Of a stretch of 64,000 nt of DNA, positions 1 through 54,624 are shown piece by piece. Numbering within the stretch: position 1 is the first letter of the stretch; each line of letters begins with the position of its first letter. The DNA comes from Candidatus Kaiserbacteria bacterium (GTDB lineage Bacteria > Patescibacteriota > Minisyncoccia > Phycocordibacterales > JABAAK01). The notes under the pieces are model-generated. The model searched no databases. It was not told where the DNA came from and saw only the letters and a program-made list of their open reading frames with translations. The position numbers and the translations under genes were made by a program. The stretch lies in assembly GCA_026713605.1 (NCBI GenBank), contig JAPOOC010000010.1:10556-74555 (forward strand), given 5' to 3'.

Positions 1-81
1 TGACCCGAGTGATGTACACTGTTTTTGGCGTGTTCATTTTTATACAGCACATTTAATCTCTGTCTAAGGAGGCATTATCTG

Positions 82-255
82 ATGAAGTATTTTCTGCCGT
101 TCATGGGAATGATTGTCGTAGTGGTGGTGTCTATAGTGTTGATTTGTATCTCACCGATGGTGCGAATGATATTTGTGGTGGGAGTTTTTATCCTGTCAAC
201 CGTATTTGCAATTCATGAAAGTTTCACCATCTATAGAAAGCATAGGGGCGGGTGA
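82..255 (+). CDS. small hydrophobic membrane protein, hypothetical
   Basis: ATG at 82 is preceded by AGGAGG 8 nt upstream; the ~57 aa product is almost entirely hydrophobic (two predicted TM helices). The track ORF starts at a TTG at 25. Confidence 0.4.
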   Translation: MKYFLPFMGMIVVVVVSIVLICISPMVRMIFVVGVFILSTVFAIHESFTIYRKHRGG

Positions 256-638
256 TTGATATGTATCATTTTGCGCCGATGGAGTTATATGTTCTATTTG
301 GAGTCGGAGTTGCCTGTTATGCTATCTCGTCCTCAAGATCAGCGTCAAGGCATCCGCCCTCCAAGATTAGTCGTCTCGTTGAGTGGATGGTTCCTCTTCT
401 TTTTTATGCATCTTGGGTTCCGTTGCTATTGCATTATATAGTAATACTTTTCTGGTTACCGCCTACCATATTTATTAACCTGAGCGGTGTACTGAGTGAT
501 CCGAATGGCCTTCATGAAGTTGGTCAGTACATTGCTTACTATGTTCACATAGGAGCGGTTGCCCTATTCTTTCTCTGGATACTTTTCTTATTGCGGGTAA
601 GGCGTGATGATCAAGACGGTTCGTCCGATGGGGATTGA
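252..638 (+). CDS. hypothetical polytopic membrane protein
   Basis: 128-aa ORF with several hydrophobic stretches; start is uncertain (GTG at 252 or ATG at 261); a terminator hairpin follows. Confidence 0.35.
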   Translation: MIDMYHFAPMELYVLFGVGVACYAISSSRSASRHPPSKISRLVEWMVPLLFYASWVPLLLHYIVILFWLPPTIFINLSGVLSDPNGLHEVGQYIAYYVHIGAVALFFLWILFLLRVRRDDQDGSSDGD

Positions 639-665
639 AATCTCCTCCCATATGAGGTTTTTGTG

Positions 666-699
666 CAGAGACAGCCGTTGGCTGTCTCTGTTATGTTTT
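666..699 (+). terminator. rho-independent terminator
   Basis: Perfect 11-bp stem CAGAGACAGCC/GGCTGTCTCTG with loop GTT, followed by a T-rich run. Confidence 0.55.
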
Positions 700-762
700 A
701 GCGTAGGGAGTATTGAACTCCTTACCTGTAATGAGAAATAAAAAATATTTTTACAGAAATTC

Positions 763-780
763 AATGTTTGGTGAAACATT
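763..780. promoter_or_regulatory. palindromic GTGAAACA-type site upstream of rdgB
   Basis: AATGTTTggtgAAACATT inverted repeat containing GTGAAACA; the same half-site family occurs at 8.1-8.36 kb and 16.98-17.02 kb. Confidence 0.4.
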
Positions 781-810
781 GGTATACTTGAGGTATACGG
801 GTGGTCTTGT

Positions 811-1365
811 ATGTATCCCAACTTTTTTGCAACAGGTAATGAGGATAAGATTCGTGAGGTTCGCGCTATTCTTGGATATGCTGTGCAGCAGGTGTCTATT
901 GATCTTTTTGAGCCGCAAGGTATCAAGGTGGAAGAGGTCGTGCGCAAAAAAGCTGAGGACGCCTTTCAACAGATTGGCAAACCTGTGCTGGTTGAGGATA
1001 CTGGCTTGGAGTTTGCTGCGTGGAATGGGCTCCCCGGTGCGCTTATGAAGTGGTTTCTTGATACTGTTGGTAATGAGGGGATTCTTAAGATGCTATCTGG
1101 TGAGGCAGATCGCGTGGCAGTTGCTAAAACGGTGGTTGGATTTTTTGATGGCGATGCTGTTCATTTTTTTGTTGGAAAGGTTCATGGGACTATTTCAGAA
1201 ACAGTTCGAGGTGTCGGTGGCTTTGGTTGGGATCCCTTATTTGTTCCTGACGGTTATGATAAAAGTTTTGCCGAAATGACTCAATCTGAGAAGAACGCTG
1301 TTTCAATGCGCAGAATCGCGCTTGAGCAGATGAAGTCCTGTTTTTCTTGTGGTGGCAAGGATTAG
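811..1365 (+). CDS. rdgB: non-canonical purine NTP pyrophosphatase (RdgB/Ham1/ITPase family)
   Basis: 184 aa; N-terminal FATGNEDKIREV; GWDPLFVP and SFAEM..EKN..SMR motifs typical of the Ham1/RdgB family. Confidence 0.8.
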   Translation: MYPNFFATGNEDKIREVRAILGYAVQQVSIDLFEPQGIKVEEVVRKKAEDAFQQIGKPVLVEDTGLEFAAWNGLPGALMKWFLDTVGNEGILKMLSGEADRVAVAKTVVGFFDGDAVHFFVGKVHGTISETVRGVGGFGWDPLFVPDGYDKSFAEMTQSEKNAVSMRRIALEQMKSCFSCGGKD

Positions 1366-1382
1366 TGTGTCTGTCGGGAGGT

Positions 1383-1479
1383 GGTACACTTTCTTTATCT
1401 TGTATGATTACTCTTATATCCCGTGTGCAGAGGTGGTTGGATGGTATTACCATGTATCGTGTCGTGACGGGTGGACTTT
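1383..1479. repeat. 97-bp direct repeat, copy 1 (identical to 2035..2131)
   Basis: Base-for-base identical 97 nt (GGTACACTTTCTTTATCTTGTATGATTACTCTTATATCCCGTGTGCAGAGGTGGTTGGATGGTATTACCATGTATCGTGTCGTGACGGGTGGACTTT) to 2035..2131; it encodes the same peptide (TLSLSCMITLISRVQRWLDGITMYRVVTGGL) in both copies. Confidence 0.9.
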
Positions 1480-1480
1480 T

Positions 1481-1930
1481 TCACTCTTTTACGAGCCACA
1501 AAGTGGCTTGTGCAGTTGAGGAAAAAAGCATTGCTTTTGGTTCGTGTGGAGGGTATTTATTACGCTCATTGTATTTCTTTACCATTCCTGGCGATTCTAA
1601 AATGCTCCGCAATTGAGATTCTGGGTAACGAGACCCGAATTCGGTTAAAAATTGAGTGAGGGATTCGTGGTTGTTGCAGTCGTCCTCAATGCTAATAGCG
1701 GAAAGGTCATCGGCGTCATCTGGTTTGACTGGTCTTGCATTTTCATCGTTTTTTGTTATTACCAACTTTGAGTACCCCATTTCTTTAATTTCCGCAATCT
1801 TTTCTGAAAGATATCTCTTTTCTTTCTGAGATATCTCATTTATTTTTTCCTGTTTTTTTGGTGGTTTTTGCTCTTTGCTATTAAACTTTTCTGGCTTCAT
1901 GCTTGTATTATAACATCCTAATTTTGCCAC
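1481..1930 (-). CDS. hypothetical Lys/Glu-rich protein encoded on the insertion between the 97-bp repeats
   Basis: 149-aa ORF that exactly fills the 555-bp segment between the two repeat copies; charged, low-complexity N-terminus (KPEKFNSKEQKPPKKQEKINE); no recognisable domain. Confidence 0.4.
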   Translation of the reverse strand: MAKLGCYNTSMKPEKFNSKEQKPPKKQEKINEISQKEKRYLSEKIAEIKEMGYSKLVITKNDENARPVKPDDADDLSAISIEDDCNNHESLTQFLTEFGSRYPESQLRSILESPGMVKKYNERNKYPPHEPKAMLFSSTAQATLWLVKE

Positions 1931-3573
1931 ACTTCAATCGGTACTCCATGATATGTGTGGAAAACATGGAAAGATCAATGGACAAGCGGTATTTCTGTCT
2001 GTTGTGTGGCTGTTATTCTTTTCGGCTGTCAAATGGTACACTTTCTTTATCTTGTATGATTACTCTTATATCCCGTGTGCAGAGGTGGTTGGATGGTATT
2101 ACCATGTATCGTGTCGTGACGGGTGGACTTTGTTTTTTGGTGGTGGTGAGTTTTTTGTTGGGGTCTGTAGGATTGGTGTCGTACAGTTTTTCTGATCAGG
2201 TTACTTCGTTAGTTGTTGCGCTTGGTGTTGCTGTAGTGAGTAATGTGGTGTTTGCGCGACTGTTTCGGGTTTCTGCTCAGCATGAGTCGGCAGTTATTAC
2301 GGCGTTGATTATTTTCTTTCTTGTTATTCCCGCGACTTCGTTTTCCGGACAGTGGGTTGTTGCTGTCGTTGCTTTTGCTGCTGTCGCTTCAAAGTTCCTT
2401 TTTGTGTGGAGGCAGCAGCACATTGTTAATCCTGCTGCGTTTGGCGTGCTTGTACTCAGCGCACCCGGTTTGGTTGAAGCAGCGTGGTGGATTGGGAGCT
2501 TTTGGTTGTTTGTACCACTTGTTATCGTCGGATTTCTCGTTGTGATGAAAATACGGCGATGGCCACTTGTGTTGTGGTGCATCGGCACTGCGTTTATTGT
2601 GTATGTGTTTGAGGCGTGGCGACTCGATCTTTCTATCTCTTCTTCTGTACCCACCTTTTTCTTGTCGTGGCCTATATTGTTCCTTGCGTTTTTTATGCTC
2701 ACCGAACCGTTCACTACCCCACCAACAAAAAAAATGCAGATGTATTACGGCGCGCTGGTCGGCGGTCTTTCAAGTGCTGTTTTTTTCGCACCATATATTG
2801 CGATGTCTCCTGAACTTGCGCTGATCATTGGTAATCTTACCTTCTTCTCCTTTTCTTTGCGTAGAAAATTGCACCTCACTCTTATTAGAGCAAAGGAGGT
2901 TGCTAAAAATACCCGAGAGTTTGTTTTCACAAAACCGGAAGATGTGCGGTTTCGCGCTGGGCAGTATCTCGAATGGATGTTGCCGCACAGGAAGCCAGAC
3001 AACCGAGGGGTGCGACGATATTTTACTATTGCTTCCGCGCCGCACGAGGATGTGTTGCGGATTGCGGTTCGATTTTCTGAGGGTGGGAGCACCTATAAGC
3101 AGGCATTGCGGCAACTTGCACCTGGTGATTGTATTATTGCCAGTCAACGAGCTGGAGATTTTTTGCTACCGGATGACCCGACAAAAAAACTTGGATTTGT
3201 TGCCGGCGGGATTGGTGTTACCCCGTTCTTGAGTCACTTCGGAGACATCGCACGGCAGGGTGTGCCGCGGGATATTGCTCTGTTCTACTGTAATAACACA
3301 AGTGAGGAGATTGCGTATAGGGACATGCTTGATGCGCTTACTGATTCCGGTCAGTGTACTGTGGTGCATATCTTGGCGGAGGAGAAAGTGGTGGGGTGTG
3401 AGTATGGCTTGTTGACTGAAGATGGTATTAAAAAGTACACGCCTGATTATCAGGATCGGCTTTGGTATCTCTCTGGTCCTCCGGGGATGGTGTATGCCTA
3501 CACCACGCTATTGCAAGGCGTGGGTGTGCCAAACCGCAATATTGTTCGTGACTTCTTTCCCGGATTAGCGTGA
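1903..3573 (+). CDS. polytopic membrane protein fused to a C-terminal FNR-like FAD/NAD(P)H-binding oxidoreductase domain
   Basis: About 8 predicted TM helices in the first ~330 aa. C-terminal RRYFTIAS (RxYS FAD motif) and GGIGVTPF (GGxGxxP NAD(P) motif). The start is ambiguous (ATGs at 1903, 1966 and 2056); the 5' end is duplicated upstream at 1383. Confidence 0.7.
   Translation: MYYNILILPHFNRYSMICVENMERSMDKRYFCLLCGCYSFRLSNGTLSLSCMITLISRVQRWLDGITMYRVVTGGLCFLVVVSFLLGSVGLVSYSFSDQVTSLVVALGVAVVSNVVFARLFRVSAQHESAVITALIIFFLVIPATSFSGQWVVAVVAFAAVASKFLFVWRQQHIVNPAAFGVLVLSAPGLVEAAWWIGSFWLFVPLVIVGFLVVMKIRRWPLVLWCIGTAFIVYVFEAWRLDLSISSSVPTFFLSWPILFLAFFMLTEPFTTPPTKKMQMYYGALVGGLSSAVFFAPYIAMSPELALIIGNLTFFSFSLRRKLHLTLIRAKEVAKNTREFVFTKPEDVRFRAGQYLEWMLPHRKPDNRGVRRYFTIASAPHEDVLRIAVRFSEGGSTYKQALRQLAPGDCIIASQRAGDFLLPDDPTKKLGFVAGGIGVTPFLSHFGDIARQGVPRDIALFYCNNTSEEIAYRDMLDALTDSGQCTVVHILAEEKVVGCEYGLLTEDGIKKYTPDYQDRLWYLSGPPGMVYAYTTLLQGVGVPNRNIVRDFFPGLA
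2035..2131. repeat. 97-bp direct repeat, copy 2
   Basis: Identical to 1383..1479; it lies inside the 5' end of the membrane oxidoreductase gene. Confidence 0.9.
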
Positions 3574-3582
3574 GTTTTTACC

Positions 3583-4098
3583 TTGCTCTCGTGGTATAGT
3601 GATATTTATATGCCTCTCATTCCCATTGTTCTTATTATTGGTGTCGTTGTGATTGCGGGTTTTGTTTTTTTTATGCTCCCGAGCAGGCAGTCGCCGGAGC
3701 CACCAGCACCATCCGCGGCAACGACGGTTACTGATGTTGCTCTCCCCCTTACCCCATCATTGGAGCGTCGCATAGAGGATGTTGTGTTGTTGCAAACGAA
3801 CACCTATCGCAACGGCACTTATACCACTCATGCATCGTACTACACACCGAAGCGGCAAAAGCATGTTATTTCTGTTACCCTTTCGTTGCAGGACGATGTG
3901 ATTACTGCCGCTGATGTGCAGTATGACAGTGCTGCGGCAAAAACACCGAGCCACACACGGTTTGACGGTGCGTACGAGTCGCTCGTTCTTGGTGTGGAGA
4001 TGGATGACCTTGATCTTTCGCGGGTCGGCGGCGCATCTCTTACCACGACCGCCTTTAATGAAACACTGGCGGACATTGCCTCAGATGCATCTTTATAA
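3583..4098 (+). CDS. membrane-anchored protein with a putative FMN-binding (FMN_bind-like) domain; possible flavinylation substrate
   Basis: N-terminal TM helix, then a Pro/Ala-rich linker. C-terminal DLSRVGGASLTTT resembles the Dxx(S/T)GA(T/S) flavin-attachment motif of NqrC/RnfG-type FMN_bind domains. It sits between a flavoprotein gene and apbE. Confidence 0.45.
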   Translation: MLSWYSDIYMPLIPIVLIIGVVVIAGFVFFMLPSRQSPEPPAPSAATTVTDVALPLTPSLERRIEDVVLLQTNTYRNGTYTTHASYYTPKRQKHVISVTLSLQDDVITAADVQYDSAAAKTPSHTRFDGAYESLVLGVEMDDLDLSRVGGASLTTTAFNETLADIASDASL

Positions 4099-4985
4099 TG
4101 GTACAGATTAAGGAAATCCCCGCACTCGGTACCCACTGGTGGTTTGACTTGTTTGCCGTGCCAGCGTCACGAGAAAAAGAGATTGCTGATCGGCTTGTCA
4201 GTCGCCTCAACACCTTTGAGCAACAGTATTCGCGCTTTTTAGATACTTCTTGTGTGGGTGTGTTGAACAAAACTGGCATACTTAAAAACCCGTCTGATGA
4301 ATGCATCTCTCTGCTGCAGTTCGGGCAAAAACTGTACCGAGATACCGGCGGGATGTTTAACTTTCTCTCCGCTCATACGCAAGTTGCGCGTGGCTACGGC
4401 TCTCCTGATAGTGTGCGTGCTGGTGACAGTATGGCGCCCGCGAATCCCACACTTGATCTCGTTATTGATAAGCAGTGCGTTACGCTCCGTCGTGGTGCCG
4501 TTGACCTTGGTGGCTTTGGGAAGGGGTGGCTTATTGATGACTTGGCTGCTCTGTTGCGAACTTCTTTTGGCGTGCAGTATTTTCTTATAAACGGGGGTGG
4601 TGATATCTATGCGAGTACCCTCCCCGACAACTCGCCTGTTGTTATTTTTGTTGAGCATCCAACTGATCAAAAGCGTATTATCGCAAAAGTGCCGCTTGCC
4701 AATCAAGGGTTTGCTGGCTCTGGCACTTACAAGCGTCGGTGGCGACACGCTGATACAATGCACCACCACATCATAGCTGATCATACCGCTGCTATGACGG
4801 CTCACATCATCGCTGACACCGCGCTTACTGCTGATGTCTTCGCGACCCTCGCATGTGCGGTTGCTCCCGCAAGAGTGCCGAAGCTACTCTACGATAACAA
4901 TCTTGAACACCTCCTTATTCAGCGCGATCGTGTTATCTGTTCTGAATATTTTTCGCGGTTCCTCTTTTCATCAGTGGATAAATAA
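4098..4985 (+). CDS. apbE: FAD:protein FMN transferase (ApbE family)
   Basis: 295 aa; ApbE-like blocks DTGGMFN, VDLGGFGKGWLIDD and INGGGDIYA. Confidence 0.8.
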   Translation: MVQIKEIPALGTHWWFDLFAVPASREKEIADRLVSRLNTFEQQYSRFLDTSCVGVLNKTGILKNPSDECISLLQFGQKLYRDTGGMFNFLSAHTQVARGYGSPDSVRAGDSMAPANPTLDLVIDKQCVTLRRGAVDLGGFGKGWLIDDLAALLRTSFGVQYFLINGGGDIYASTLPDNSPVVIFVEHPTDQKRIIAKVPLANQGFAGSGTYKRRWRHADTMHHHIIADHTAAMTAHIIADTALTADVFATLACAVAPARVPKLLYDNNLEHLLIQRDRVICSEYFSRFLFSSVDK

Positions 4986-5048
4986 CGGCGAATCGGCTGT
5001 CGCGTATATGCGACAGCCGATTGTGTTGTGAGATGTCTGTTGGCAAAT

Positions 5049-5777
5049 TTACTGTGTGCTTTCAGTGTCGGATTCGGCTGTGTCGGTTTCTACCATATCC
5101 ATTTCAGTGGTTGTATCTGTTCGTGTCTTTTTGTCTGCACCCATTCTGTGGTTGCCCATGCGCTTGTAATCTTTACCCTGATGTCCCCCGCATGCACCGT
5201 GCCCGTGCCAATTAAAGCCACGGTCATCCGTTGAAGCAATTTTAGTGGCGCGTGTGTTGAACTCTTCTTGTGTCATGTCGTCGTAACGGCTCTTGTATTC
5301 GTCACCGAGCAGTGTTTTCAATTCCTGCACCTTTCCAGTGAATGCCGTAAAATCTTTATCCTCTGCCGCCTGTTTGATTGCCTGTTTGATGGCGATCATC
5401 TGCGCTTTCTTTGTGAAAGCACTTTCTGAGAGCTGGTGCATACTTCCTTCGGTCAGAGTTTTGTATGCCTCGTAATCGTTTGCGGAGAATGTGTCGCTGA
5501 TTTGTTTTTTCTTCGCAATTTTTTTCGCCTGTTCTGCAAATTCATCTTGTGTCAAAACAGTTTCCTCGTGTTTTTGATCCATCGCGGCAGTGTATGCATT
5601 GTAGTCCGCGCTTTCAAATGCTTTGTGTATCGCACTCTTGGTCTCTTCAGATACGCCACCGTGTCCGTGATGCCCTCTTTCAGCGAATACGCTTACTGCA
5701 TAGATGCTCACAAGCACTGCAATCAATAGGGCAGTTAGCATTACCATGCTTTTTGTGTTGTATATTTTTTTCATATC
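5049..5777 (-). CDS. secreted His-rich helical-repeat protein, hypothetical
   Basis: Signal peptide MKKIYNTKSMVMLTALLIAVLVSIYAVSVFA. His clusters ERGHHGHGG and NWHGHGACGGHQG. Repeated QEEF/QDEFAEQAKKIA helical segments. The start is moved from the track ORF (5885) to the signal-peptide Met. Confidence 0.5.
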   Translation of the reverse strand, partial: DMKKIYNTKSMVMLTALLIAVLVSIYAVSVFAERGHHGHGGVSEETKSAIHKAFESADYNAYTAAMDQKHEETVLTQDEFAEQAKKIAKKKQISDTFSANDYEAYKTLTEGSMHQLSESAFTKKAQMIAIKQAIKQAAEDKDFTAFTGKVQELKTLLGDEYKSRYDDMTQEEFNTRATKIASTDDRGFNWHGHGACGGHQGKDYKRMGNHRMGADKKTRTDTTTEMDMVETDTAESDTESTQ

Positions 5778-5878
5778 GGTTTTTTTATTTTTTAGCAATA
5801 CATACGATGTGTTTTCGTATGTATTTGTAGTGTAGCATGCGATATGTTTTCTTTGTTGCGTTTTAGGTAGGTATTCTT

Positions 5879-7801
5879 CTACCATTCAAATGCATTCTTT
5901 AGGTGATGGAGCATGCTTCGCGTGTCGGTGAATGCATCTTCTGATTTGAGTATGACGGTTATGATGTGCCCCTTTTGTGAAGGCGTTTTAGCGACGATGG
6001 TGAGATTGTTTTTTGCCCTCGGCGTTGTGCCGGTCTTGCCACCTAATACCTGTAACACGATTTCCTTGTCGGTGAGTAAATCGTTGGTTGTTGCTATCGG
6101 TATTGTTCGCTTCGTGGTTATTTCTGTTATGGTGTGATTGGTTTTTTGGAGGATGGCAAAAACATCTTTCTTGTTTTCAAAAATGTGTTTTAACAGTAGC
6201 GTGATGTCTGATGCGGTTGTGTAGTTTATGTTTTCACTTCCCTCTTTTGGATCAAGTCCGGTTGTGTTGAAGAAATGTGTGTTGAACATTTTTAATTGGT
6301 GGGCGCGGTCGTTCATTTTTTGTATGAATTTTTCTCTGCCGACTGTTTCTGCGATTGCAATTGCTATTTCGTTGTTTGATTCAATGAGGATTGCATGGAG
6401 TGCGTCATTGAGCAATATAGATTCTCCTGTGATAAACCTTCCTGACACACCCTTGCCGTTTAGTGCGCTTTGATTGATGCTAATACTCCTGTCCGACCGC
6501 AGTGTTTCAGACGCAACCAGTGCGGTCATCAATTTTGTTATACTTGCCATCGGTAGTTTTTTTTCTTTATTCTTTTGGAATAGCGTTTGATCTCCTCCGT
6601 TTGTGCTTGTGATTACTGCTACAGCACTGTTTGCAGATAGGATGGGTTCTTCACTACTAGTACTCTTCGGATTAGGATACCGTGTTGTTCTTTGTTGTGC
6701 CATTGGTGTTACTAGCTGCGCCTGCCAAACATCATTTCGCCAACGCCATTCAGCATCCATACCACCAAAAATCCACACCCTGTCTTTGAATACCGCTGAA
6801 AAGAAATCCTCCCTACCCTTCCACTGTGGATCAGTTACTGTTTTTTTCCACCTTATCCCATCTTCTGAATACCATACATTATTCGGTCCTTTGTTTTTTT
6901 TGTCGTTAAACCTTCCGATGAGCCACATCTTTCCTTTATACACCTCCATTGCGTGACCTTGTCGTTGCCCCCATGGCGGGCTGTTGGTTACTAGTCGCCA
7001 GTGCAATCCGTTTTCTGTTACCCACACATCGTTAAAAATCCCTCCGGTTAAATTCATACCGCCTGTCAGGTACATTTTTCCTTTGAATACTGCCGTTGCA
7101 TGATCCCACCGTGATTCCCATGGCATATTCTCTGCCTCCACCCAAGTTATCCCGTCTTCGGAATACCAAACATCGTTTTTTGTCTCTCGATTGTCATAAT
7201 TCACACCACCGATGAGCCAAATTTTATCTTGGAAAATTTCTACCATCTGCCCTTCCCGCGCAGGCCATTCTGCCTGTTTGGTTGCCTGTGTCCAGTGTAT
7301 CCCATCAGTGGATGACCAAATATCATTTGTGTAACCGGTCACCGGACTCCACCCTCCGAACATCCACAACTTGTCTTTGAAAAGTACCACCGACATAGAC
7401 CGTCTCGGTGGCCACTCTGCCGCTGCTACTGCCTGATGCCACCCCATACCATCTTCGGAATACCATATGTCGTTGAAGTGTGGTGCTTTCCAGTAGTCAA
7501 TGGTGTCGTCCCCTCTGATAGTGCTATTGCCGTTGATTCCACCCATCATCCAGAGTTTGTTTTGGAATAGAAATGCTTCACCAGAATCTCGCGTTTCCCA
7601 TGGCGCCGCTGCAGTCACCTCTGTCCAGCGCATGTCATGCCGTCTTACTATCGGTGTCTTTTTTGTGGTGTCGGTTGCTGCTGTATTTTTTTTCTCACCA
7701 TCTTTTTCGCCTACTCCCGCCAATGGGTCAAACATGGTATACATACCAAAAATAAAGAGGGCGAACATACTTGCGAGAATGACAAATTCTAACCACTTCA
7801 T
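5879..7801 (-). CDS. membrane-anchored Kelch-like beta-propeller fused to a D-alanyl-D-alanine carboxypeptidase (peptidase S11) domain
   Basis: N-terminal TM helix. About six repeats of W..(S/T)EDG..W....(L/I)W(M/L)(F/I)GG type. C-terminal SxxK (ASITK) and SNN (ESNNE) motifs of PBP5/DacA-type DD-carboxypeptidases. Confidence 0.7.
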   Translation of the reverse strand: MKWLEFVILASMFALFIFGMYTMFDPLAGVGEKDGEKKNTAATDTTKKTPIVRRHDMRWTEVTAAAPWETRDSGEAFLFQNKLWMMGGINGNSTIRGDDTIDYWKAPHFNDIWYSEDGMGWHQAVAAAEWPPRRSMSVVLFKDKLWMFGGWSPVTGYTNDIWSSTDGIHWTQATKQAEWPAREGQMVEIFQDKIWLIGGVNYDNRETKNDVWYSEDGITWVEAENMPWESRWDHATAVFKGKMYLTGGMNLTGGIFNDVWVTENGLHWRLVTNSPPWGQRQGHAMEVYKGKMWLIGRFNDKKNKGPNNVWYSEDGIRWKKTVTDPQWKGREDFFSAVFKDRVWIFGGMDAEWRWRNDVWQAQLVTPMAQQRTTRYPNPKSTSSEEPILSANSAVAVITSTNGGDQTLFQKNKEKKLPMASITKLMTALVASETLRSDRSISINQSALNGKGVSGRFITGESILLNDALHAILIESNNEIAIAIAETVGREKFIQKMNDRAHQLKMFNTHFFNTTGLDPKEGSENINYTTASDITLLLKHIFENKKDVFAILQKTNHTITEITTKRTIPIATTNDLLTDKEIVLQVLGGKTGTTPRAKNNLTIVAKTPSQKGHIITVILKSEDAFTDTRSMLHHLKNAFEW

Positions 7802-8111: not shown

Positions 8112-8361
8112 AACACTTATGAAAACCCCTTTCCTTTTCCTTGTGTTTCTATGTGAAACATGTTTCACGTGAAACGATTTTTAGTTTTTTTGCCAGAATT
8201 GTTTCATGTGAAACACTTTTTTTGTAAAAGTTTATAAAAAACCCTTATTTTGTGTTGAGTGTTTCACACTGTAACATGTTTCACATGAAACTTTTTTGAT
8301 CTTTTTTCAGGATTGTTTCACGTGAAACACTTTTCCGTGAAACGCGTGAAACACTTTTTAT
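8101..8361. repeat. cluster of GTTTCA(C/T)GTGAAAC / GTGAAACATGTTTCAC palindromic repeats, each followed by a T-tract
   Basis: At least 8 copies of the GTGAAAC/GTTTCAC half-site form perfect 14-16 bp palindromes; several are followed by TTTTT (terminator-like); the cluster sits in the 300-bp intergenic region between the MGMT and yraN-like genes. Confidence 0.75.
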
Positions 8362-8374
8362 AAAATTTCATGAT

Positions 8375-8428
8375 TTGACTTTTTGTCAAGTTATTTTATT
8401 ATTTAATCATTGTTTGACTTTTTGTCAA
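8375..8428. promoter_or_regulatory. two copies of the palindrome TTGACTTTTTGTCAA (8375..8389 and 8414..8428), putative promoter/operator of the yraN-like gene
   Basis: Exact 15-bp inverted repeat present twice, 39 bp apart, containing -35-like TTGACT/TTGACA hexamers on both strands. Confidence 0.45.
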
Positions 8429-8477
8429 ATTATGATTTTACTATATTCTGTTTATCATGTTGTATAGTGCGTATAAT

Positions 8478-8844
8478 TATGTCTACATTGAGTAAATTTT
8501 TTGGAAATATTGGGGAGAAGTATGCTGAAAAATATCTAACATCTCGTGGGTACTCCATTATAGCAACGCAATGCAACGCAAAATTTGTGGAGATTGATAT
8601 TCTAGCTCGGCAGGAGAAAACATTGTATTTGTTTGAGGTGAAAAGTGTTTCACATAGAAACATTGATTCTTCAGCATTTCACCCTGTGCATCGCGTCAAT
8701 CATCGTAAAATCAAAAAAATGGATGCCTTCGCCACCTTCTATTTGAATGATCACCCTGAATACACTGGTGCCGCAATGGGAATTATTACCGTTTCTCTTG
8801 CTGAGGAGTTGCAGTATCCAGATATTCAGATTGTTTGGATTTGA
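8478..8844 (+). CDS. YraN/UPF0102 family predicted endonuclease
   Basis: GEKYAEKYLTSRGYSIIATQCNAKFVEIDILARQEKTLYLFEVKS matches the UPF0102 pattern (GE..A..YL...G..I...N.R...GEIDLIA....LVFVEVK). The start is placed at MSTLSKFF rather than the track ORF start 8410. Confidence 0.6.
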
Positions 8845-9516: not shown

Positions 9517-9587
9517 GCGGGCGTAGTTTAGTGGTAGAACATCCGCCTTCCAAGCGGAAAACGAGAGTTCGATTCTCTCCGCCCGCA
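9517..9587 (+). tRNA. tRNA-Gly (anticodon TCC), no encoded CCA
   Basis: Acceptor GCGGGCG/CGCCCGC, anticodon stem TCCGC/GCGGA, loop CTTCCAA, T-arm GAGAGTTCGATTCTCTC. Confidence 0.85.
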
Positions 9588-9692
9588 CATCAGAAAATAT
9601 CTTGCGGTATGCTCCTTTGCTTGTGCAGACCTCTTTGTCTGCAACGCGATTTATCATGTACCCCTCCCTTGACTGTGTGGGTTTGAGGCACT

Positions 9693-11144
9693 TTGAAACT
9701 TTTGTTGACAGTGGCGGTGTTTGGCGGGTATACTGGCACATACATGCGTGTGGTTACAAAACAATTACAACCAGAAAGTCCAGAAGTGATTGTCTATTCG
9801 TTTCATGAGAACAATTTTTTGAGTGGATTGAAGATGCTTAATGCGTCCCTGGCAGTAGTCGCAGAGCGGAAAGGGCTGCAGGGAGAGGTCGGTGATGTTG
9901 TTATCGGCATGAATTCTGATAATGTTTATATCTATTGTGTTGTTGCTGGCTCTGGTGGCGCGAAAACAAGGAGTGCTGGTGGCTCTTGCGCTGCGTGGGC
10001 AATGGAGGAGCGGATAAAAACAGTGGAAATGGTGGAAGGAGTGCCTGAGGATTTTGTGGAAGGATTTATGTTGCGTAACTATGTGTTTTCTGAGTATAAA
10101 ACAGTCGCTAAGACAAAGAAGGTGCCGGTGCGAGTGGTTTTGACAGCGCAGTCGTTTCCACAGGGGCGGGTATATGGCGTGCAAGCTAATCACATCGCAC
10201 GCGACCTCATGAATGAACCACCTAATACTCTACATCCCCCTCGGTACGCCGAAAGAATACAGACACTTTTTGCTGATACAGCGGTTTCTGTTGAGGTGCT
10301 CGGAGAAGAAACCTTGAGGCAGATTGGCATGTGTGCACTACTTGCGGTTGGGCAAGGGTCATCGCAAGAGAGTAAGGTTGTCATTATGCGCTGGAACGGT
10401 GGGCAGGACACTCGTACTGTTGATCTCGCGCTCGTTGGGAAGGGGATTACCTTTGATACGGGGGGCATATCTCTCAAGCCGAGTGATAGGATGGATGAGA
10501 TGCGGTGGGATATGGGTGGATCGGCGGCGGTTGTCAGTGCCTTGCATGCTGCGGCGAAGAGTGGGATGCAGCAAAACATTGTTGGGGTGGTTGGCTTGGT
10601 TGAGAACATGCCGGATGGAAACTCCTATAGGCCTGGGGATATTGTTACCAGTATGTCAGGGAAAACAATAGAAATTATTAATACGGATGCTGAGGGACGG
10701 ATGGTGCTTGCTGATGCGCTTTGGTATGTGCAGGAACAATTCTCACCTCGTGAAATTATTGATTTTGCCACGCTCACCGGTGCGGTCGTTGTTGCACTTG
10801 GTACCGAGTATGGTGGGCTTTTTTCAAACAATTCTGCGTTTGCGGAGCGATTGGTGCGTGCTGGTGAAAAATCTGGTGAGTTGGTGTGGCAGATGCCGAT
10901 TCACGACAATTATCTGGAGCGCATGCAATCACGCACTGCTGATTTGCGTAATACGAGCATCTTGCGAGGTGACTCGGGTGCCGGGACTGCGGCGGCGTTT
11001 CTCCGTGCATTTGTGAAAAAGGAATCTGTATGGGCGCACATTGATATTGCTGGCTGTGCACTTCCTTCTAAGCATAACAAGCTCGCAGGAGGAGATCCGA
11101 GTGGTTTTGGCGCTCGTTTTGTTCACGCCTACCTCACTGGGTAG
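9693..11144 (+). CDS. pepA: leucyl aminopeptidase (peptidase M17)
   Basis: NTDAEGRMVLADAL M17 signature; the track ORF starts at 9693, but an internal Met at 9744 is an alternative start. Confidence 0.85.
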   Translation: MKLLLTVAVFGGYTGTYMRVVTKQLQPESPEVIVYSFHENNFLSGLKMLNASLAVVAERKGLQGEVGDVVIGMNSDNVYIYCVVAGSGGAKTRSAGGSCAAWAMEERIKTVEMVEGVPEDFVEGFMLRNYVFSEYKTVAKTKKVPVRVVLTAQSFPQGRVYGVQANHIARDLMNEPPNTLHPPRYAERIQTLFADTAVSVEVLGEETLRQIGMCALLAVGQGSSQESKVVIMRWNGGQDTRTVDLALVGKGITFDTGGISLKPSDRMDEMRWDMGGSAAVVSALHAAAKSGMQQNIVGVVGLVENMPDGNSYRPGDIVTSMSGKTIEIINTDAEGRMVLADALWYVQEQFSPREIIDFATLTGAVVVALGTEYGGLFSNNSAFAERLVRAGEKSGELVWQMPIHDNYLERMQSRTADLRNTSILRGDSGAGTAAAFLRAFVKKESVWAHIDIAGCALPSKHNKLAGGDPSGFGARFVHAYLTG

Positions 11145-13529: not shown

Positions 13530-13612
13530 GTGGCGGAATTGGCTGTGCCCAGAAGAGGGCTTGAACCTCCACGAGATTGCTCTCATACGCTCCTGAAGCG
13601 TACGCGTCTACC
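13530..13612 (-). pseudogene. partial tandem duplicate of the tRNA-Leu 3' two-thirds (from the D-loop GGTAGACGCG to the 3' end, plus ~17 nt downstream)
   Basis: 83-bp unit 97% identical to 13656..13738. It lacks the 5' acceptor/D-stem half, so it cannot fold into a complete tRNA. Confidence 0.6.
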
Positions 13613-13671
13613 CGTGCCGGCAATCTCTGATTGACGCTGACTATCAGACGCCACGGTGGCGGAATTGGCTG

Positions 13672-13755
13672 TGCCCAGAAGAGGACTTGAACCTCCACGA
13701 GATTACTCTCATACGCTCCTGAAGCGTACGCGTCTACCAATTCCGCCACCTGGGC
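13672..13755 (-). tRNA. tRNA-Leu (anticodon CAG), long variable arm, no encoded CCA
   Basis: Minus strand GCCCAGGTGGCGGAATTGGTAGACGCG...TTCAGGA...GGTTCAAGTCCTCTTCTGGGCA; strong similarity to canonical bacterial tRNA-Leu. Confidence 0.8.
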
Positions 13756-13829
13756 TACACAGGAAGTATACCGTATTGGCACTTTTGCCTTATCTTTTGA
13801 CGACAGCGGGGTATATACTGTTGGTAAGT

Positions 13830-15320
13830 ATGGCTGAAAAAAATACGCTTTCTTTGTCGGTGCCCGAATTCGCTGTGGAAGTTGCACAAACTCTGCACAG
13901 TGCCGGGTTTGAAGTGTACCTTGTTGGTGGCTGTGTTCGCGGGTTGATTATGGGGCGAGAAGTTGCTGATTGGGATTTTACGACGAATGCCACACCGGGG
14001 CAGATACAAGGTCTTTTTGAACACACCGTATATGAAAACGATTTTGGTACGGTTGGGGTTGTATTGGATGGTGTGCCTGATGGCGACAGCGAGCATACAG
14101 TCGTTGAGGTTACTCCGTATCGCAAGGAAAAAGGGTATAGCGATAATCGGCGTCCGGATGCAGTGGTATTTTGTGACTCTCTTGATGAGGATCTGTCACG
14201 ACGAGATTTCACCATTAATGCGCTGGCGTACAATCCGGTAACAGAGGAGTTGGTTGACCGGTACGGTGGCATTGCTGATCTCCACCTCGGTGTCATACGG
14301 ACTGTCGGTGATCCCGCAGAGCGGTTTGAGGAGGATGCGTTGCGACTGATGCGCGCAGTGCGAATTGCTACACAGCTGCATGGCAGTGTTGAGGAGAGAA
14401 CCCTACAGGTTATACAGGAGAAATCTGACGCCCTTACCTCTGTCGCACCTGAACGAATACGGGATGAGTTTCTGAAGCTTATTATGGCTGATGTGCCTGA
14501 TACTGGTATACGATTGCTCCTACAGACCGGACTGTTGACACATATCATTCCTGAACTTCTACAAGGGGATGGCGTCGAGCAAAGCCAGGCGCACCGGTAT
14601 GATGTGTTAGAGCACAACATTCGGACACTTGCGCACAGTGGAGTGAAGCAATTTCGTCTTGAGGTTCGACTTGCTGCACTGCTGCATGACATCGGCAAGC
14701 CAAAGACCCGGGAATGGCATGAAGAACGAGGGGATTGGTCATTTCATGCGCACGAGGTCGTTGGCGCACGGATGGTGAAGAAGATATTGCAGCGACTGAA
14801 ATTCTCAAAAGAAGTTGTTGACACCGTTACACTGTTTGTCCGGTGGCACATGTTTTTCTCTGACCCTGACAAGGTTTCCCTCTCTGGAGTGCGGCGGATG
14901 GTTGCGCGAGTTGGCGAGCAGCATATTTGGGATTTGATTGATTTGCGGATGTGTGACCGTATTGGTACTGGCAGGCCAAAGGAGCAACCATATCGTTTGC
15001 GAAAGTATGTTTCGTTGGTGGAGGAAGTGTTGCGGGAGCCCGTTACCCCCGGCACACTTGTTATAAATGGTACGATGTTGATGCAAGGGATTGGTCTGAA
15101 ACCCGGACCAAAGATTGGGCATGTTCTCCACATCCTGCTTGCAGAAGTGCTGGATGACCCTGAGAAAAATGTTGTGGATATATTGCTTGCGCGTGCAAAA
15201 GAGTTGTTGCAACTGTCTGAAAAAGATCTCGCCATACTTGGCAAGAAGGGGAAGGTGCGTCGGTTTGAGGAGGAGGAAGGGCAGGTGGCAGAGATACGAA
15301 GGAAATATAGAGTTGACTGA
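13830..15320 (+). CDS. cca: CCA-adding tRNA nucleotidyltransferase with HD domain
   Basis: GGCVRG...DWDFTT pol-beta NT motif, the following RRDFTINA block and HDIGK HD motif; an N-terminal start at MAEKNT fits the downstream tRNA; all tRNAs in the window lack an encoded CCA. Confidence 0.8.
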   Translation: MAEKNTLSLSVPEFAVEVAQTLHSAGFEVYLVGGCVRGLIMGREVADWDFTTNATPGQIQGLFEHTVYENDFGTVGVVLDGVPDGDSEHTVVEVTPYRKEKGYSDNRRPDAVVFCDSLDEDLSRRDFTINALAYNPVTEELVDRYGGIADLHLGVIRTVGDPAERFEEDALRLMRAVRIATQLHGSVEERTLQVIQEKSDALTSVAPERIRDEFLKLIMADVPDTGIRLLLQTGLLTHIIPELLQGDGVEQSQAHRYDVLEHNIRTLAHSGVKQFRLEVRLAALLHDIGKPKTREWHEERGDWSFHAHEVVGARMVKKILQRLKFSKEVVDTVTLFVRWHMFFSDPDKVSLSGVRRMVARVGEQHIWDLIDLRMCDRIGTGRPKEQPYRLRKYVSLVEEVLREPVTPGTLVINGTMLMQGIGLKPGPKIGHVLHILLAEVLDDPEKNVVDILLARAKELLQLSEKDLAILGKKGKVRRFEEEEGQVAEIRRKYRVD

Positions 15321-22051: not shown

Positions 22052-23251
22052 TTGACAACTAAAGTAAAATTAGTACACTATACTTATATGTATGATAACA
22101 GCACACATAGAGGAAGCGAGGAGCGTCAACAGGGGTGTGAGATATTTTTTCTACAGGTAGGGGAAAATGATTCAGAGAGTAGTCAGAGTGGGGATGCTAT
22201 TGTTCTGACAATGGGCAATCGTTTCAGTAATAATAGGGATGATTATAAAATCATTGTGATTGATGGTGCGTTTACTCATGATGCGCAAACCGTTAAGAAG
22301 CACTTAAATCTTTTGGATGCAAAAAATGAAAATGACAAGTTACAGATTGATTTAATGGTTTCTACACATTCTGATCAGGATCACATAAGTGGTTTGATTA
22401 AGTTGGTGGAAGACGATGATGTTGAGATTAAAAAATTGTGGGTTCATGACTGTAATAAAATTACAGGCAATATTACATGCAGCGTTGATCAGGTAAAAAA
22501 TTTAATTTGGATTGCAGGAAAGAGGGGCATACCTATGGAAGAGCCATTTGCTGGTCTGTCATACAATCCTGATGATATAGATGCTTGTATAGAGGTATTA
22601 GGACCAACAGGAGAATACTATGAGGAATTAATGTGTTCTGTAGATAAGGTATATGTAAAAGGTAAGAGAAAGAACGCTTTTAGTGTTTTAGGAAGAGCTT
22701 GTGACGCATTGCGCAATAGTGTTGGCTCAATGCTTGAGCATGTATTTGATACAGAATTACTGAAAGACCCTGATGAAAATGCAACATCTAATAGTAATAA
22801 TTCTTCAGCAATTTTATTATTAAAATTTTTCAAAAATGATCAAGTGAGTGATCTTGCATTATTCACTGCTGATGCCGGTGTTCCAGCATTGGAGAAGGTT
22901 TTTCCGGCGCTTGAGGAGCATGGTTGGTCTGAATACAGTGTTAAAAGGTTTTTACAAATTCCACACCACGGGAGCAGAAGGAATGTTGGTCCAACACTTT
23001 TAGATGAGTTACTCGGCGAAAAGGAATTTAATTGTAGAAGAGGCTCCTGCTTTGTTTCTGCGCACGAGAAGGATGAGAGCCATCCGAAAGTGCAGGTACT
23101 CAATGCGTTTACAAGAAGAGGTTATAGAGATATTGAAGATATATATCCTGCTAAACGACATCATATGGGTGATACCCCATCAATTAATGGATGGGAGACT
23201 GCTGAGAAGATTGATTTACTGTTAGGAGAGGAGGAGGAAGAACACGATTAA
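22052..23251 (+). CDS. standalone ComEC-C-like metallo-beta-lactamase-fold hydrolase, first gene of the AT-rich island
   Basis: GDAIVLTMGN...YKIIVIDGAF; STHSDQDHISG (TH.D.DHI.G, as in the ComEC MBL domain at 41388..42263); IPHHGSRRN (HHGS motif). Confidence 0.55.
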   Translation: MTTKVKLVHYTYMYDNSTHRGSEERQQGCEIFFLQVGENDSESSQSGDAIVLTMGNRFSNNRDDYKIIVIDGAFTHDAQTVKKHLNLLDAKNENDKLQIDLMVSTHSDQDHISGLIKLVEDDDVEIKKLWVHDCNKITGNITCSVDQVKNLIWIAGKRGIPMEEPFAGLSYNPDDIDACIEVLGPTGEYYEELMCSVDKVYVKGKRKNAFSVLGRACDALRNSVGSMLEHVFDTELLKDPDENATSNSNNSSAILLLKFFKNDQVSDLALFTADAGVPALEKVFPALEEHGWSEYSVKRFLQIPHHGSRRNVGPTLLDELLGEKEFNCRRGSCFVSAHEKDESHPKVQVLNAFTRRGYRDIEDIYPAKRHHMGDTPSINGWETAEKIDLLLGEEEEEHD

Positions 23252-23253
23252 TT

Positions 23254-23754
23254 ATGAAAAGATTAATACAAATAATGACAACTTATAATTTATTAAATTA
23301 TCTATTGCCGGGCATCTTGTTTGTCATTTTTGCAAATCATTTTACCTCGTATTCCTTTTTACAAGAGAATTTGATAATAGGGGGTTTTTTGTACTATTTT
23401 ATAGGTATGGTAATTAGTCGAATAGGGTCGTTATTTATTGAGCCATTCTTAAAAAAAATTCGTTTTTTAAATTTTGCTAATTACAAAGATTTTATTTATG
23501 CTGGCAATAAGGATGAAAAAATAGGAGTTCTTTCTGAACAAAATAATCAATATAGAACCATTGTGGCATTTCTAGTATCAATTGGTTTACTGAAAGTGTG
23601 GGAATTATTTTCTGATTATTTGAACTTAAGCCAATTTGCGGAAGCGGTGATTATTTATGTGGTTCTTTTGATAATATTTTTAGTTTCGTATAGGAAACAA
23701 ACAAATTATATAAGGTCAAGGGTTGAGGCAAACAAAAAAGAGGGCGGGTCATAA
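23254..23754 (+). CDS. small 4-TM membrane protein, hypothetical (island gene)
   Basis: 166 aa with four hydrophobic helices; starts 3 nt after the MBL gene stop; AT-rich. Confidence 0.5.
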   Translation: MKRLIQIMTTYNLLNYLLPGILFVIFANHFTSYSFLQENLIIGGFLYYFIGMVISRIGSLFIEPFLKKIRFLNFANYKDFIYAGNKDEKIGVLSEQNNQYRTIVAFLVSIGLLKVWELFSDYLNLSQFAEAVIIYVVLLIIFLVSYRKQTNYIRSRVEANKKEGGS

Positions 23755-23886
23755 AATAAACATTACAGCCCACCTTGCTAAATTAAGAAAATCCACATAT
23801 TTTGATATAATTCAATATTTTTACCTTATACTATTAGTGTATGTGGTGTGCTATGTGCCGTTTTCTTTCTTCAGGTTTCTTTACTT

Positions 23887-25779
23887 GCTATGGTTGAGAA
23901 AAGTTACAAGATTGGCGAAGTGGCAGAGATGTTGGGGGTGCATGAGGACACCTTGCGAAATTGGGACGCGCATGGGTTGGTGGTGGCAGACAGAGTAGGG
24001 ACGAGGAAAGATAGGAGGTATACAGTGGAACACATAAAGCAGATAAAGGAGAAAGGGCTTGTGTCTGATCTTGCGAGGCGGCAGCCGAGCGGTCGGGATT
24101 ATTCGGATTATTCAAAGGAACAGTTGATTAAGGAGTTGCAAATATTGAAAGAACAGAGAAAGTACGGACTTGTGTGGGAAGATAAGCCGGAAGAGGTTGT
24201 TGAGATGTGTAAGACACAGGCACCCATCTTAAAATCAGTTCCAAAAATGAATGTTGCTGGAAGAAAAGGTGAGCAACGAAATATTATGATAGAGGGAGAT
24301 AACTACCATGCTTTGCAAGTTTTAAACTATACGCACAAAGGAAAGATTGATGTGATATATATTGATCCACCGTATAACACGGGAGCGAAAGATTGGAAAT
24401 ATAACAATGATTATGTTGAGAAAGAAGATGCCTTTCGGCACAGTAAGTGGATTTCAATGCTGTACAAAAGAATGTTATTGGCAAAGTCTTTATTAAAAAG
24501 TGATGGCGTAATGATAGTTACGATTGACGACCACGAATTATTTAGTCTTCTTGGGATTATTGAAGATCTTGATGCTACAACATTGGGTAGAGTTACCGTG
24601 TCAATTAAGCCAGAAGGCAGGCAACAAAGTAGATATGTGATGGAGTCCCATGAATATATTATATTTATGTCTTGGGGTGTACCTAAAATTAGAGGTCTAA
24701 ATATAAATTTCGGCTCAGATTTTACTGAGGAAGATGAAATTTCTAAATTTAAGTGGGAAGGGTTTATGCGTAGGGATGCTGGTCGTGAGGATAGAAGTTC
24801 AAATACTTGGTATCCAATTTATGTAGATCAGCAAGGCAATGTTAGTCTTAAGGAAAAACCAAACACGATTAAAGTGTTGCCTATAAATACAAAAGGCATT
24901 GAACGAGTCTGGCTTTGGTCAGAAGAAAGAGCACAAAAAGATATAAGTGAATTAAAAGCAGTGATCAGAAATAATCGAGCTACTGTTTACTACAAAAGGA
25001 GAGAGCAAGAGCGAGTTAAACCAACCTCAATATGGTTTGGTAGTAAATATAATGCAAATGCATACGGCACAAGACTCTTATCAAGAATCTTGCCGGAGAA
25101 CAATTTCGATTACCCAAAAAGCCTTTATTCTGTGCTGGATGCAATAGATTTATTTTTACCAAAAGATGGGTTGGTATTGGATTTCTTCGCTGGATCAGGA
25201 ACAGCAGGACACGCAGTGATGGAATTAAACAAGGAAGATAGCGGAAGTAGGCGATTTATCCTCTGCACAAATAACGAAAACAACAATGGTAACGGACATG
25301 GTGGGATTGCTGAGAGCGTGTGTCAGCCGAGGATTAAAAAGGTGATGAAGGGATATAAGAAAAATGGGAATGGAGAGAGGGTTGAGGGGCTTGGCGGCAG
25401 TTTGGAATACTTTAAAACAGAGTTTATTGATGTGGAGAATGTGAGTGATGTTCCAGACAAGAAAAGGTTGCGATTTACCCATGAAGCCGGACATGTGGTC
25501 GCTTTGAAAGAAAACGCGTTTACTGAGTTGGAGAAAAATAATTGGTATCAGATATTTACTGATGGATTAGATAAATATGTGGGTCTTTATTTTAGAGAAA
25601 ACATTGAAAAATTAGAGGATTTGGAACAAAAGATTTTAAACAGGGGAGAGGTAAAATTATATATATTTTCACATGGCGGCAGTGATGACTGGAAAAATGA
25701 CTATACAGAGCATGAAAATGTGATAGTTGAAGATATACCAGAGCCGATATTAAAGGTGTATAAAATTTTAAATAGTTAG
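23887..25779 (+). CDS. MerR-type HTH fused to an N6-adenine/N4-cytosine DNA methyltransferase (beta class; Type III Mod-like)
   Basis: YKIGEVAEMLGVHEDTLRNWDAHGLV MerR HTH; IYIDPPYNTG (motif IV) upstream of LDFFAGSGTAGHAV (motif I), the order typical of Type III Mod/beta-class MTases. Confidence 0.8.
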   Translation, partial: AMVEKSYKIGEVAEMLGVHEDTLRNWDAHGLVVADRVGTRKDRRYTVEHIKQIKEKGLVSDLARRQPSGRDYSDYSKEQLIKELQILKEQRKYGLVWEDKPEEVVEMCKTQAPILKSVPKMNVAGRKGEQRNIMIEGDNYHALQVLNYTHKGKIDVIYIDPPYNTGAKDWKYNNDYVEKEDAFRHSKWISMLYKRMLLAKSLLKSDGVMIVTIDDHELFSLLGIIEDLDATTLGRVTVSIKPEGRQQSRYVMESHEYIIFMSWGVPKIRGLNINFGSDFTEEDEISKFKWEGFMRRDAGREDRSSNTWYPIYVDQQGNVSLKEKPNTIKVLPINTKGIERVWLWSEERAQKDISELKAVIRNNRATVYYKRREQERVKPTSIWFGSKYNANAYGTRLLSRILPENNFDYPKSLYSVLDAIDLFLPKDGLVLDFFAGSGTAGHAVMELNKEDSGSRRFILCTNNENNNGNGHGGIAESVCQPRIKKVMKGYKKNGNGERVEGLGGSLEYFKTEFIDVENVSDVPDKKRLRFTHEAGHVVALKENAFTELEKNNWYQIFTDGLDKYVGLYFRENIEKLEDLEQKILNRGEVKLYIFSHGGSDDWKNDYTEHENVIVEDIPEPILKVYKILNS

Positions 25780-25780
25780 T

Positions 25781-26869: not shown

Positions 26870-26880
26870 AGGAGAATAAT

Positions 26881-38339: not shown

Positions 38340-38355
38340 TTTGTGTCGGTTTTAG

Positions 38356-38744
38356 TGGAGGTGGCGGGAATTGAGCCCGCGTCCATGTCAACTGTCCTCT
38401 AAAGGTGTTTTACATAGCATCTGCACATGATAGGTTCTGTGCCGACCAATGTCTCTGCTTTTTTTGATGCTCCGGTTATAGCAGGGGATAGAGCCGAAGT
38501 CACTTTTTCTCGCTTTCTTACACCCGTACGGATTAGCGAGAATCATCCGTGGGATGGCTCATACCTTATTTGGATGAGCGAGGCATTTGCGTCGCCTAAG
38601 CGAACGCAGGTGCTGAGCTATTGATAAACTCAGTAAATGCCCGTGCAAATTTGTTTTTGTTTGCAACTTGTGGATGTTTTAGATGATCTCTCATCACTAT
38701 GCACCTATGGGGGACTGTGTTAACTGTCAAGGCCTGACACCCCC
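38356..38744 (-). ncRNA. ssrA: tmRNA (SsrA); proposed tag reading frame 38664..38596 encodes ANKNKFARAFTEFINSSAPAFA*
   Basis: 5' GGGGGTGTCAGGCCTTGACAG... acceptor pairs with 3' ...GCGGGCTCAATTCCCGCCACCTCCA (tRNA-Ala-like T-arm and acceptor). Internal ORF begins with the GCA resume codon and ends ...AFA-TAG. smpB is directly adjacent. Confidence 0.75.
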
Positions 38745-49292: not shown

Positions 49293-49379
49293 GTGTACAG
49301 TATACTCCAGTGAAATGTGTACAACTTTCCTGTGTGATAAAAGGTGGTATTCTATAGGTATATGGTAAACCCAAAGGAG

Positions 49380-54617: not shown

Positions 54618-54624
54618 ACCCCTT

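Follow-up and report, generated by a model that had tools for sequence, protein, structure and literature searches.

Template-switch insertions of the type ascribed to fork stalling and template switching or microhomology-mediated break-induced replication (FoSTeS/MMBIR), a mechanism characterised mainly in eukaryotes and Escherichia coli and not in bacteria of the Candidate Phyla Radiation (CPR), are flanked by a target duplication, have sharp junctions, involve no recombinase and can relocate housekeeping genes. Phage morons are single extra genes, each with its own promoter, that lie between conserved genes. In E. coli, integration of circular DNA into the chromosome by a single crossover gave inserts with a duplication of 109-950 bp on either side (PMC3240628). 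Here we describe a locus in a 64,000-nt stretch of Candidatus Kaiserbacteria DNA (contig JAPOOC010000010.1, positions 10,556 to 74,555; hereafter the window, in whose coordinates all positions are given) at which a perfect direct repeat (R) brackets a short segment (X) with one orphan gene, orf139, between rdgB and a conserved operon headed by a membrane flavoprotein oxidoreductase gene, and we compare this R-X-R arrangement with the systems above, with integrative islands and with transposons.

R is 98 nt long and its two copies (1382-1479 and 2034-2131) are 100% identical; a shuffled-sequence control gave 0 matches like it in 100 shuffles. The identity ends sharply at both edges, and the 40 nt 5' of each copy bear no significant likeness to one another (p~0.18). 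Between the copies lie the 554 nt of X (1480-2033). A first-pass annotation of the same DNA had described perfect 97-bp repeats around a 555-bp single-ORF insertion; the perfect identity and the single gene stand, whereas the repeat reaches one base further left and the insert is accordingly 554 nt. Relative to the oxidoreductase gene, R runs from -22 to +76 and takes in an extended -10 box (TGGTACACT, its first nine bases), a leader of 13 nt and the opening 25 codons with one further base. The features of the locus are as follows.

811-1365, + strand: rdgB/HAM1, 184 amino acids (Pfam Ham1p_like, E=1.8e-47)
1382-1479, + strand: repeat copy 1, with a predicted orphan extended -10 box (1382-1390), the 13-nt leader, an ATG at 1404 and 25 codons
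1404-1616, + strand: chimeric stub open reading frame (ORF), 70 amino acids, made of 25 oxidoreductase codons and 45 codons antisense to orf139
1441-1453, and again 2093-2105: 13-bp palindrome ATGGTATTACCAT within R, which relatives do not have
1480-2033: insert X, 554 nt of unique sequence between the R copies
1481-1900, - strand: orf139, 139 amino acids, ATG at 1900, the only plausible gene in X
1907-1915, - strand: predicted orf139 promoter, an extended -10 box (TGTTATAAT) followed by 6 nt (ACAAGC) and the ATG, hence of leaderless type
2034-2131, + strand: repeat copy 2, in which the oxidoreductase gene has its predicted functional promoter, its leader and codons 1-25
2056-3573, + strand: membrane flavoprotein oxidoreductase, 505 amino acids, with an RnfD/NqrB-like membrane domain and an FNR-like FAD/NAD-binding domain
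3583-4985, + strand: downstream partners, a 171-amino-acid protein and an ApbE flavin transferase (4098-4985; Pfam ApbE, E=4e-32)

The downstream copy belongs to a gene whose identity and boundaries are well anchored. The oxidoreductase (Pfam matches NQR2_RnfD_RnfE, FAD_binding_6 and NAD_binding_1) has 2,821 homologues, of which the closest among the matches listed are almost all ~505 amino acids long (489-522) and cover the query from ATG 2056; because of these lengths and this coverage, and of an NCBI call of 505 amino acids, the start is placed at ATG 2056 and not at the mechanical TTG 1903. The first-pass annotation was thus right to place copy 2 in 5' coding sequence, but the ORF that it had taken as 1903-3573 begins at 2056, so that R includes the promoter as well. 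The gene is the first of a conserved three-gene unit, followed by the 171-amino-acid protein (no Pfam or NCBIfam match) and ApbE, which is kept in all relatives examined (L005, L007, L008, L025 and L026). At the orthologous loci of L005, L007 and L008 (77-80% protein identity) the upstream neighbours are all different and sequence conservation starts at the first base of R, and L008 shows no difference from the window over the 25 nt leading up to the ATG; L025 and L026 (71% and 68% identity) have a similar TATAC-type box ~20 nt 5' of the ATG. As read from these alignments, R is the operon's own predicted promoter core together with its 13-nt leader and the start of its coding sequence (25 codons and one base), and thanks to copy 2 the operon lacks neither -10 box nor leader nor start codon.

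R-X-R has the anatomy of an insertion-duplication, in which a contiguous target segment stands on both sides of an insert with one gene copy intact and the other truncated. The best reading is that it is a recent recombination scar, the outcome of a known kind of event, that has placed an orphan gene in front of a conserved operon, and we hold with moderate confidence that the scar was made by the host's recombination or replication machinery and not by an enzyme encoded in the insert. Of the three options put forward in the first-pass annotation (site-specific integration, a duplication-insertion event or a recombination-prone cassette), duplication-insertion fits best, given the target duplication and the pair of intact and truncated gene copies. 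The ancestral state would have been rdgB, 16 nt and then the oxidoreductase operon with its own promoter, and a 554-bp segment with one promoter-equipped gene, orf139, would have entered along with a second copy of the 98-bp target stretch. This could have happened by either of two routes: (a) a DNA fragment circularised and was integrated by a single Campbell-type crossover through the 98 bp of homology; or (b) replication switched templates, copied X and came back to the template 98 nt behind the point at which it had left. The upstream copy would have been left as an orphan promoter and 25-codon stub transcribing antisense into orf139, and orf139 would be driven by its own leaderless-type promoter. 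Between direct repeats such as these, RecA-type recombination could only delete X together with one copy and so restore the ancestral site; the suggestion that the cassette might flip or excise therefore fails for flipping, which direct repeats do not allow, while deletion or excision is possible in principle.

The likeness to Campbell-type integration, as in E. coli conjugation (PMC3240628) and insertion-duplication mutagenesis, lies in the flanking direct duplication with a complete and a truncated copy, in the dispensability of any element-encoded enzyme and in reversibility by recombination between the repeats. It differs in that the event here was a natural one in an uncultured CPR bacterium, in that 98 bp is just below the range of 109-950 bp, with which we nevertheless judge it compatible as a length for homologous recombination (PMC3240628), and in that the duplicated piece is exactly a promoter plus 5' end, leaving the operon undisrupted. 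DNA uptake and recombination are plausible because ComEC and RecJ are encoded in the window, and none of the ~60 window ORFs scanned has a recombinase or transposase Pfam match above the curated cut-off. The reading is also favoured by the lack of terminal inverted repeats in X and of a second copy of it in the window, by its host-adapted look, and by the left edge of R, which coincides with the first base of the extended -10 box, where conservation among relatives with unrelated upstream neighbours sets in as well.

The same anatomy recurs elsewhere in the lineage. Within the window, a 40-nt repeat (25777-25816 and 26877-26916, 90% identical) consists of the start codon and first 12 codons of a Type III restriction gene, res; this res 5' duplication precedes a gene for an NYN-domain protein (25781-26869) that lies between mod (23848-25779) and res (26881-29112). 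The NYN gene starts with the duplicated res start codon, and the N-terminus of its product is that of Res (MKKITLKPFQ). The anatomy is that of R-X-R, though older. In L025 (ENA ERZ25067264, ctg835787) a ~135-nt repeat (757-891 and 2319-2452 of that contig, 87% identical, with no mismatch in the first 63 nt) encloses pyrD (1154-2104), just 5' of the orthologous oxidoreductase operon. The repeat comprises the last 27 codons of a GSDH gene, a spacer and the first ~46 nt of a tRNA-Gly(ccc) gene; GSDH is made whole by copy 1, its C-terminus aligning with those of homologues, and the tRNA (2411-2484) by copy 2. Since each copy completes a different flanking gene, only an insertion with target duplication explains this locus. 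The res/NYN and L025 cases, like R-X-R, come without a recombinase. The sharp edges of R at the orf139 locus, and the relocation of pyrD in L025, are also what FoSTeS/MMBIR-type events would produce. A further ~95-nt intergenic repeat in L019 (about 1535-1630 and 2465-2560, ~80% identical) brackets two small ORFs, one of 92 amino acids (85 in the public call) and one encoding a 128-amino-acid retropepsin-like Asp_protease_2 protein; judging by its sequence, this could be a further insertion-duplication, or a regulatory element that occurs twice.

Three to four such cases in ~130 kb suggest a lineage habit and not a one-off, in a sample that is too small to claim one, and a literature search on long target duplications or direct-repeat rearrangements in Patescibacteria found nothing specific. 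It is a tentative idea, more probably wrong than right, that Kaiserbacteria, and perhaps CPR bacteria widely, undergo a recurrent process of single-gene insertion or relocation, enzyme-independent or of a kind not yet recognised, that duplicates 40-135 bp of the target and leaves neighbours and promoter intact. Were it true, leftover stubs could be reused, as the start codon of the NYN gene would have been, and the orf139 locus would be the youngest example, its scar still perfect.

Several points weigh against a host-made insertion-duplication at the orf139 locus. No empty site, donor circle or source copy of X has been found, so that the proposed direction and mechanism come from anatomy alone; routes (a) and (b) yield the same product and are not separable; and route (a) presupposes a circle with the 98-bp target segment already on it, and leaves the origin of that circle unexplained. 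Site-specific recombination, too, would account for the 100% identity and the sharp edges. The argument from recurrence draws on only ~130 kb of lineage sequence, and the survey of recombination genes covers the 64-kb window only.

The R-X-R structure is not an assembly artefact. A repeat of 98 nt invites the suspicion of a collapsed or duplicated contig edge, already voiced in the first-pass annotation, or of a chimeric join through a k-1 overlap: 98 is k-1 for k=99, a k-mer size of common assemblers, and many contigs from other samples end within copy 1. However, two MEGAHIT contigs assembled at k=141 from different ENA samples (L001 and L002) cross both copies with unique flanks and match the window at 100% identity. 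Any k-mer of more than 98 nt has to hold R plus both flanks, and therefore the paths from rdgB through R into X and from X through R into the gene are read-supported. Further assemblies agree base for base: a JGI contig (L003) includes 96 nt of copy 1 followed by X, copy 2 and the gene; in L011, rdgB leads through R into 13 nt of X; L024 begins within X and continues into the oxidoreductase gene; and rdgB, orf139 and the oxidoreductase are consecutive protein accessions in the NCBI annotation. Contigs L012-L017, from other samples, break within copy 1, which is normal assembler behaviour for a 98-nt repeat and short reads. We accordingly give the artefact almost no weight. L013, which ends exactly at the end of copy 1, was considered as a sign of a mixed empty and occupied population and was not used, because low coverage or graph effects explain its end equally well.

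A search for the empty site, rdgB followed directly by a single copy of R, had been proposed as a check and yielded none in the contigs, collections and records covered. None appears among the places shown for 13 contigs that encode an identical RdgB; an exact-match pattern returned nothing from the JGI metagenome or GTDB genome collections; and no gene product of an empty site is on record, the 90%-identity cluster of the oxidoreductase holding only the 505-amino-acid form and a 531-amino-acid form that starts inside X. The occupied structure looks fixed in this clonal lineage. The nearest relatives in the databases, at ~80% protein identity, carry other genes both 5' of the operon and after rdgB, and because their neighbours differ at both places the ancestral state is unreadable from them.

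These searches also bear on the idea that the locus is a programmed, recombination-prone cassette in which orf139 would be switched on and off as a regulated or phase-variable trait, either by deletion across the repeats or by transcription from copy 1 in antisense. The copy 1 promoter is intact-looking and aimed antisense at orf139, and perfect identity maximises recombination between the copies; however, every assembly that crosses the locus is occupied, with no empty-site contig or gene product on record, and nothing points to a selectable function for orf139. We regard such a switch as highly improbable. The structural scar is probably neutral, and the convergent arrangement of the copy 1 and orf139 promoters makes it testable for antisense regulation.

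On the left flank, the stop codon of rdgB lies 16 nt before copy 1, and rdgB has a predicted promoter of its own (TGGTATACT, 780-788). An orphan ORF (1347-1616) overlapping the rdgB stop had been reported and is indeed present, its meaningful part being the 70-amino-acid stub from ATG 1404. The stub has a codon-usage score of -0.008, under the range typical of true frames, and has no PHROG match; because of that score it is probably not a real protein, and from sequence features it is probably not a functional one. Conservation of RdgB ends at ...LEQMK, and its C-terminal tail (SCFSCGGKD, 1339-1365) runs 5 amino acids beyond most relatives and is unrelated to theirs. By its sequence this tail might be the edge of an older rearrangement or just a variable tail.

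X carries a single reverse-strand gene, as first annotated; its start is better placed at ATG 1900, which gives the public-call length of 139 amino acids, than at GTG 1930. The stop codon of orf139 (1481-1483) is 1 nt from the edge of copy 1. Its codon score is 0.18 in frame (true frames 0.27±0.10, off-frames at most 0.055), and it looks like a real, host-adapted gene by these sequence measures. The same spacing from -10 box to ATG is found at the Kelch/S11, LysRS and TsaE genes, and at the nitroreductase gene if a downstream ATG is used. The motif TGNTAYAHT has 33 matches in the window, about half of which, on a reading of the sequence, are followed by a start codon 6-25 nt further on or stand right before a tRNA gene, and the 6-8 nt between motif and ATG at several genes suggests that leaderless mRNAs may be widespread in this organism. 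Examples of the motif are at 780, 1915(-), 2034, 7816(-), 12854(-), 16921(-), 60418 and 61536, and before tRNA genes at 8871 and 13494.

The homologue search recommended in the first-pass annotation returned only orf139 itself among 5.8e9 clusters and 1.84e9 representatives (phmmer/full HMMER), and its protein cluster has a single member, with no multiple copies. It has no PHROG, PADLOC, NCBIfam or IMG/VR match; the sole Pfam match, Cpn60_TCP1, is sub-threshold (19.5 bits against a cut-off of 34.3); and a single-sequence AlphaFold model (predicted local distance difference test score 64.5) matches no solved PDB fold (best E=0.2). X as a whole has a G+C content of 38.8%, against 44.9% for the window (12% of equal-sized windows are as low or lower), has no second copy within the window, not even a diverged one, and no similarity in the loci of seven relatives, and contains no inverted repeat that pairs its two ends. 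R plus X has no match in phage or plasmid records, and Rfam gives none at E<=1 over positions 1-6000. With its host-like codon usage and host-type promoter, X looks host-adapted rather than alien.

An alternative interpretation is that X and orf139 are the operon's native upstream neighbour and that copy 1 alone is new, a 98-nt templated copy of promoter and 5' end placed 554 bp further upstream, with rdgB on one side and the 3' end of orf139 on the other, where it would make an antisense promoter. This would require one event and would produce identical sequence, and it agrees with the host-like codon usage and host-type promoter of X and with a G+C content that is only mildly low (12th percentile); in addition, synteny breaks off upstream of the operon in each of the relatives examined, so that they show no ancestral state. 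However, orf139 has no homologue anywhere, which is unexpected for a native neighbour although possible for a fast-evolving small protein, and the last 40 nt of X are not significantly similar to the relatives' upstream regions. The L025 locus, where each copy completes a different flanking gene, is explained only by insertion into a once-contiguous target. We therefore consider a native X rather unlikely, though the most serious of the competing explanations. A resemblance of the last ~18 nt of X to the sequence upstream of the L008 orthologue was dropped after a shuffle test (p~0.12).

Among mobile elements, transposons and insertion sequences share with R-X-R a direct target duplication on both sides of the insert, but theirs is ~2-15 bp long against 98 bp here, and the locus has no transposase, no terminal inverted repeats and no further copy; the earlier judgement that the duplication is too long for a transposase target-site duplication holds. 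A transposon was rejected also in view of the database results for orf139 (no Pfam match above cut-off and none in NCBIfam, PHROG or PADLOC), with no other ORF fitting into the 554 bp. An integron gene cassette was rejected on the folding of R, which is no better than that of shuffled sequence (z=0.64) and not att- or attC-like, and on the lack of an integrase among the ORFs scanned; a diversity-generating retroelement was rejected because there is no reverse-transcriptase Pfam match among these ORFs, and because the copies are 100% identical and stand at the 5' end. Phage morons resemble the locus in that one independently promoted gene of unknown family occurs in one lineage between ordinary genes; they differ in that the context here is chromosomal and not a prophage, and in the long flanking target duplication.

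Islands bounded by attL and attR, including cis-mobilizable elements (CIMEs), come closer, as identical repeats are present and the downstream copy completes the target gene. R-X-R could then be the remnant or satellite of a site-specific integrative element, with R as attL/attR and an integrase that has been lost or acts in trans, as for a CIME. Identical direct repeats of ~100 bp that rebuild a gene end are typical of integrase-mediated integration, and R contains a 13-bp palindrome that is not in relatives. However, no recombinase Pfam match above cut-off occurs among the ~60 ORFs across the 64 kb; fragments of R and orf139 have no IMG/VR match, and R plus X, as noted, none in phage or plasmid records; no attP partner was found in viral, plasmid or phage collections and no empty attB was seen; and an element of 554 bp carrying a single gene of unknown family would be far smaller than any known integrative element. 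The parallels in the lineage, moreover, bracket the housekeeping gene pyrD, also with no integrase. Site-specific integration, the first of the options raised earlier, is thus not borne out by the window or by the collections searched, and we think it improbable, more so than a native X.

If R-X-R is a host-made insertion-duplication, it offers a clean and very recent example of a lineage-specific orphan gene set beside a conserved operon in a reduced CPR genome with the operon unbroken. If recurrence were to hold genome-wide, such events would be a characteristic mode of gene-order change in symbiont-like bacteria, and their duplications a sequence signature for dating insertions.

Several other features of the window were recorded. 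A cluster of repeats around the palindrome TGTTTCACGTGAAACA (8139-8662) adjoins a UPF0102/NERD-like gene (8410-8844); similar repeats are kept in L005 (9178-9422), and the equivalent place in L019 has a 173-nt tandem repeat in 3 copies (9541-10059). Two tandem tRNA-Leu(cag) genes (13547-13631 and 13671-13755) lie in a 112-nt repeat (87% identical) next to a tRNA-Arg(tcg) gene, and the ORF at 13656-15320 (CCA-adding enzyme/poly(A) polymerase family) has its real start further downstream, because it overlaps a tRNA-Leu gene. At 22052-23754, two genes match the PADLOC candidate system PDC-M48 (an M48B/LmuA-like protein of 399 amino acids, E=1e-45, and an M48A protein of 166 amino acids, E=2e-60); they lie directly upstream of the Type III restriction-modification genes and together with them form a small defence island. 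The tmRNA gene (38355-38744) adjoins the SmpB gene. A 141-nt repeat (51409-51549 and 52264-52404, 88% identical) inside a 1,023-amino-acid ORF (49344-52415, no Pfam match) is probably an internal protein repeat. Finally, a VirD4/TraG-like coupling ATPase followed by ComEC, RecJ, DnaA and DnaN is encoded in 46132-48807 and 53139-59149, and the replication origin region probably lies close to 56-58 kb.

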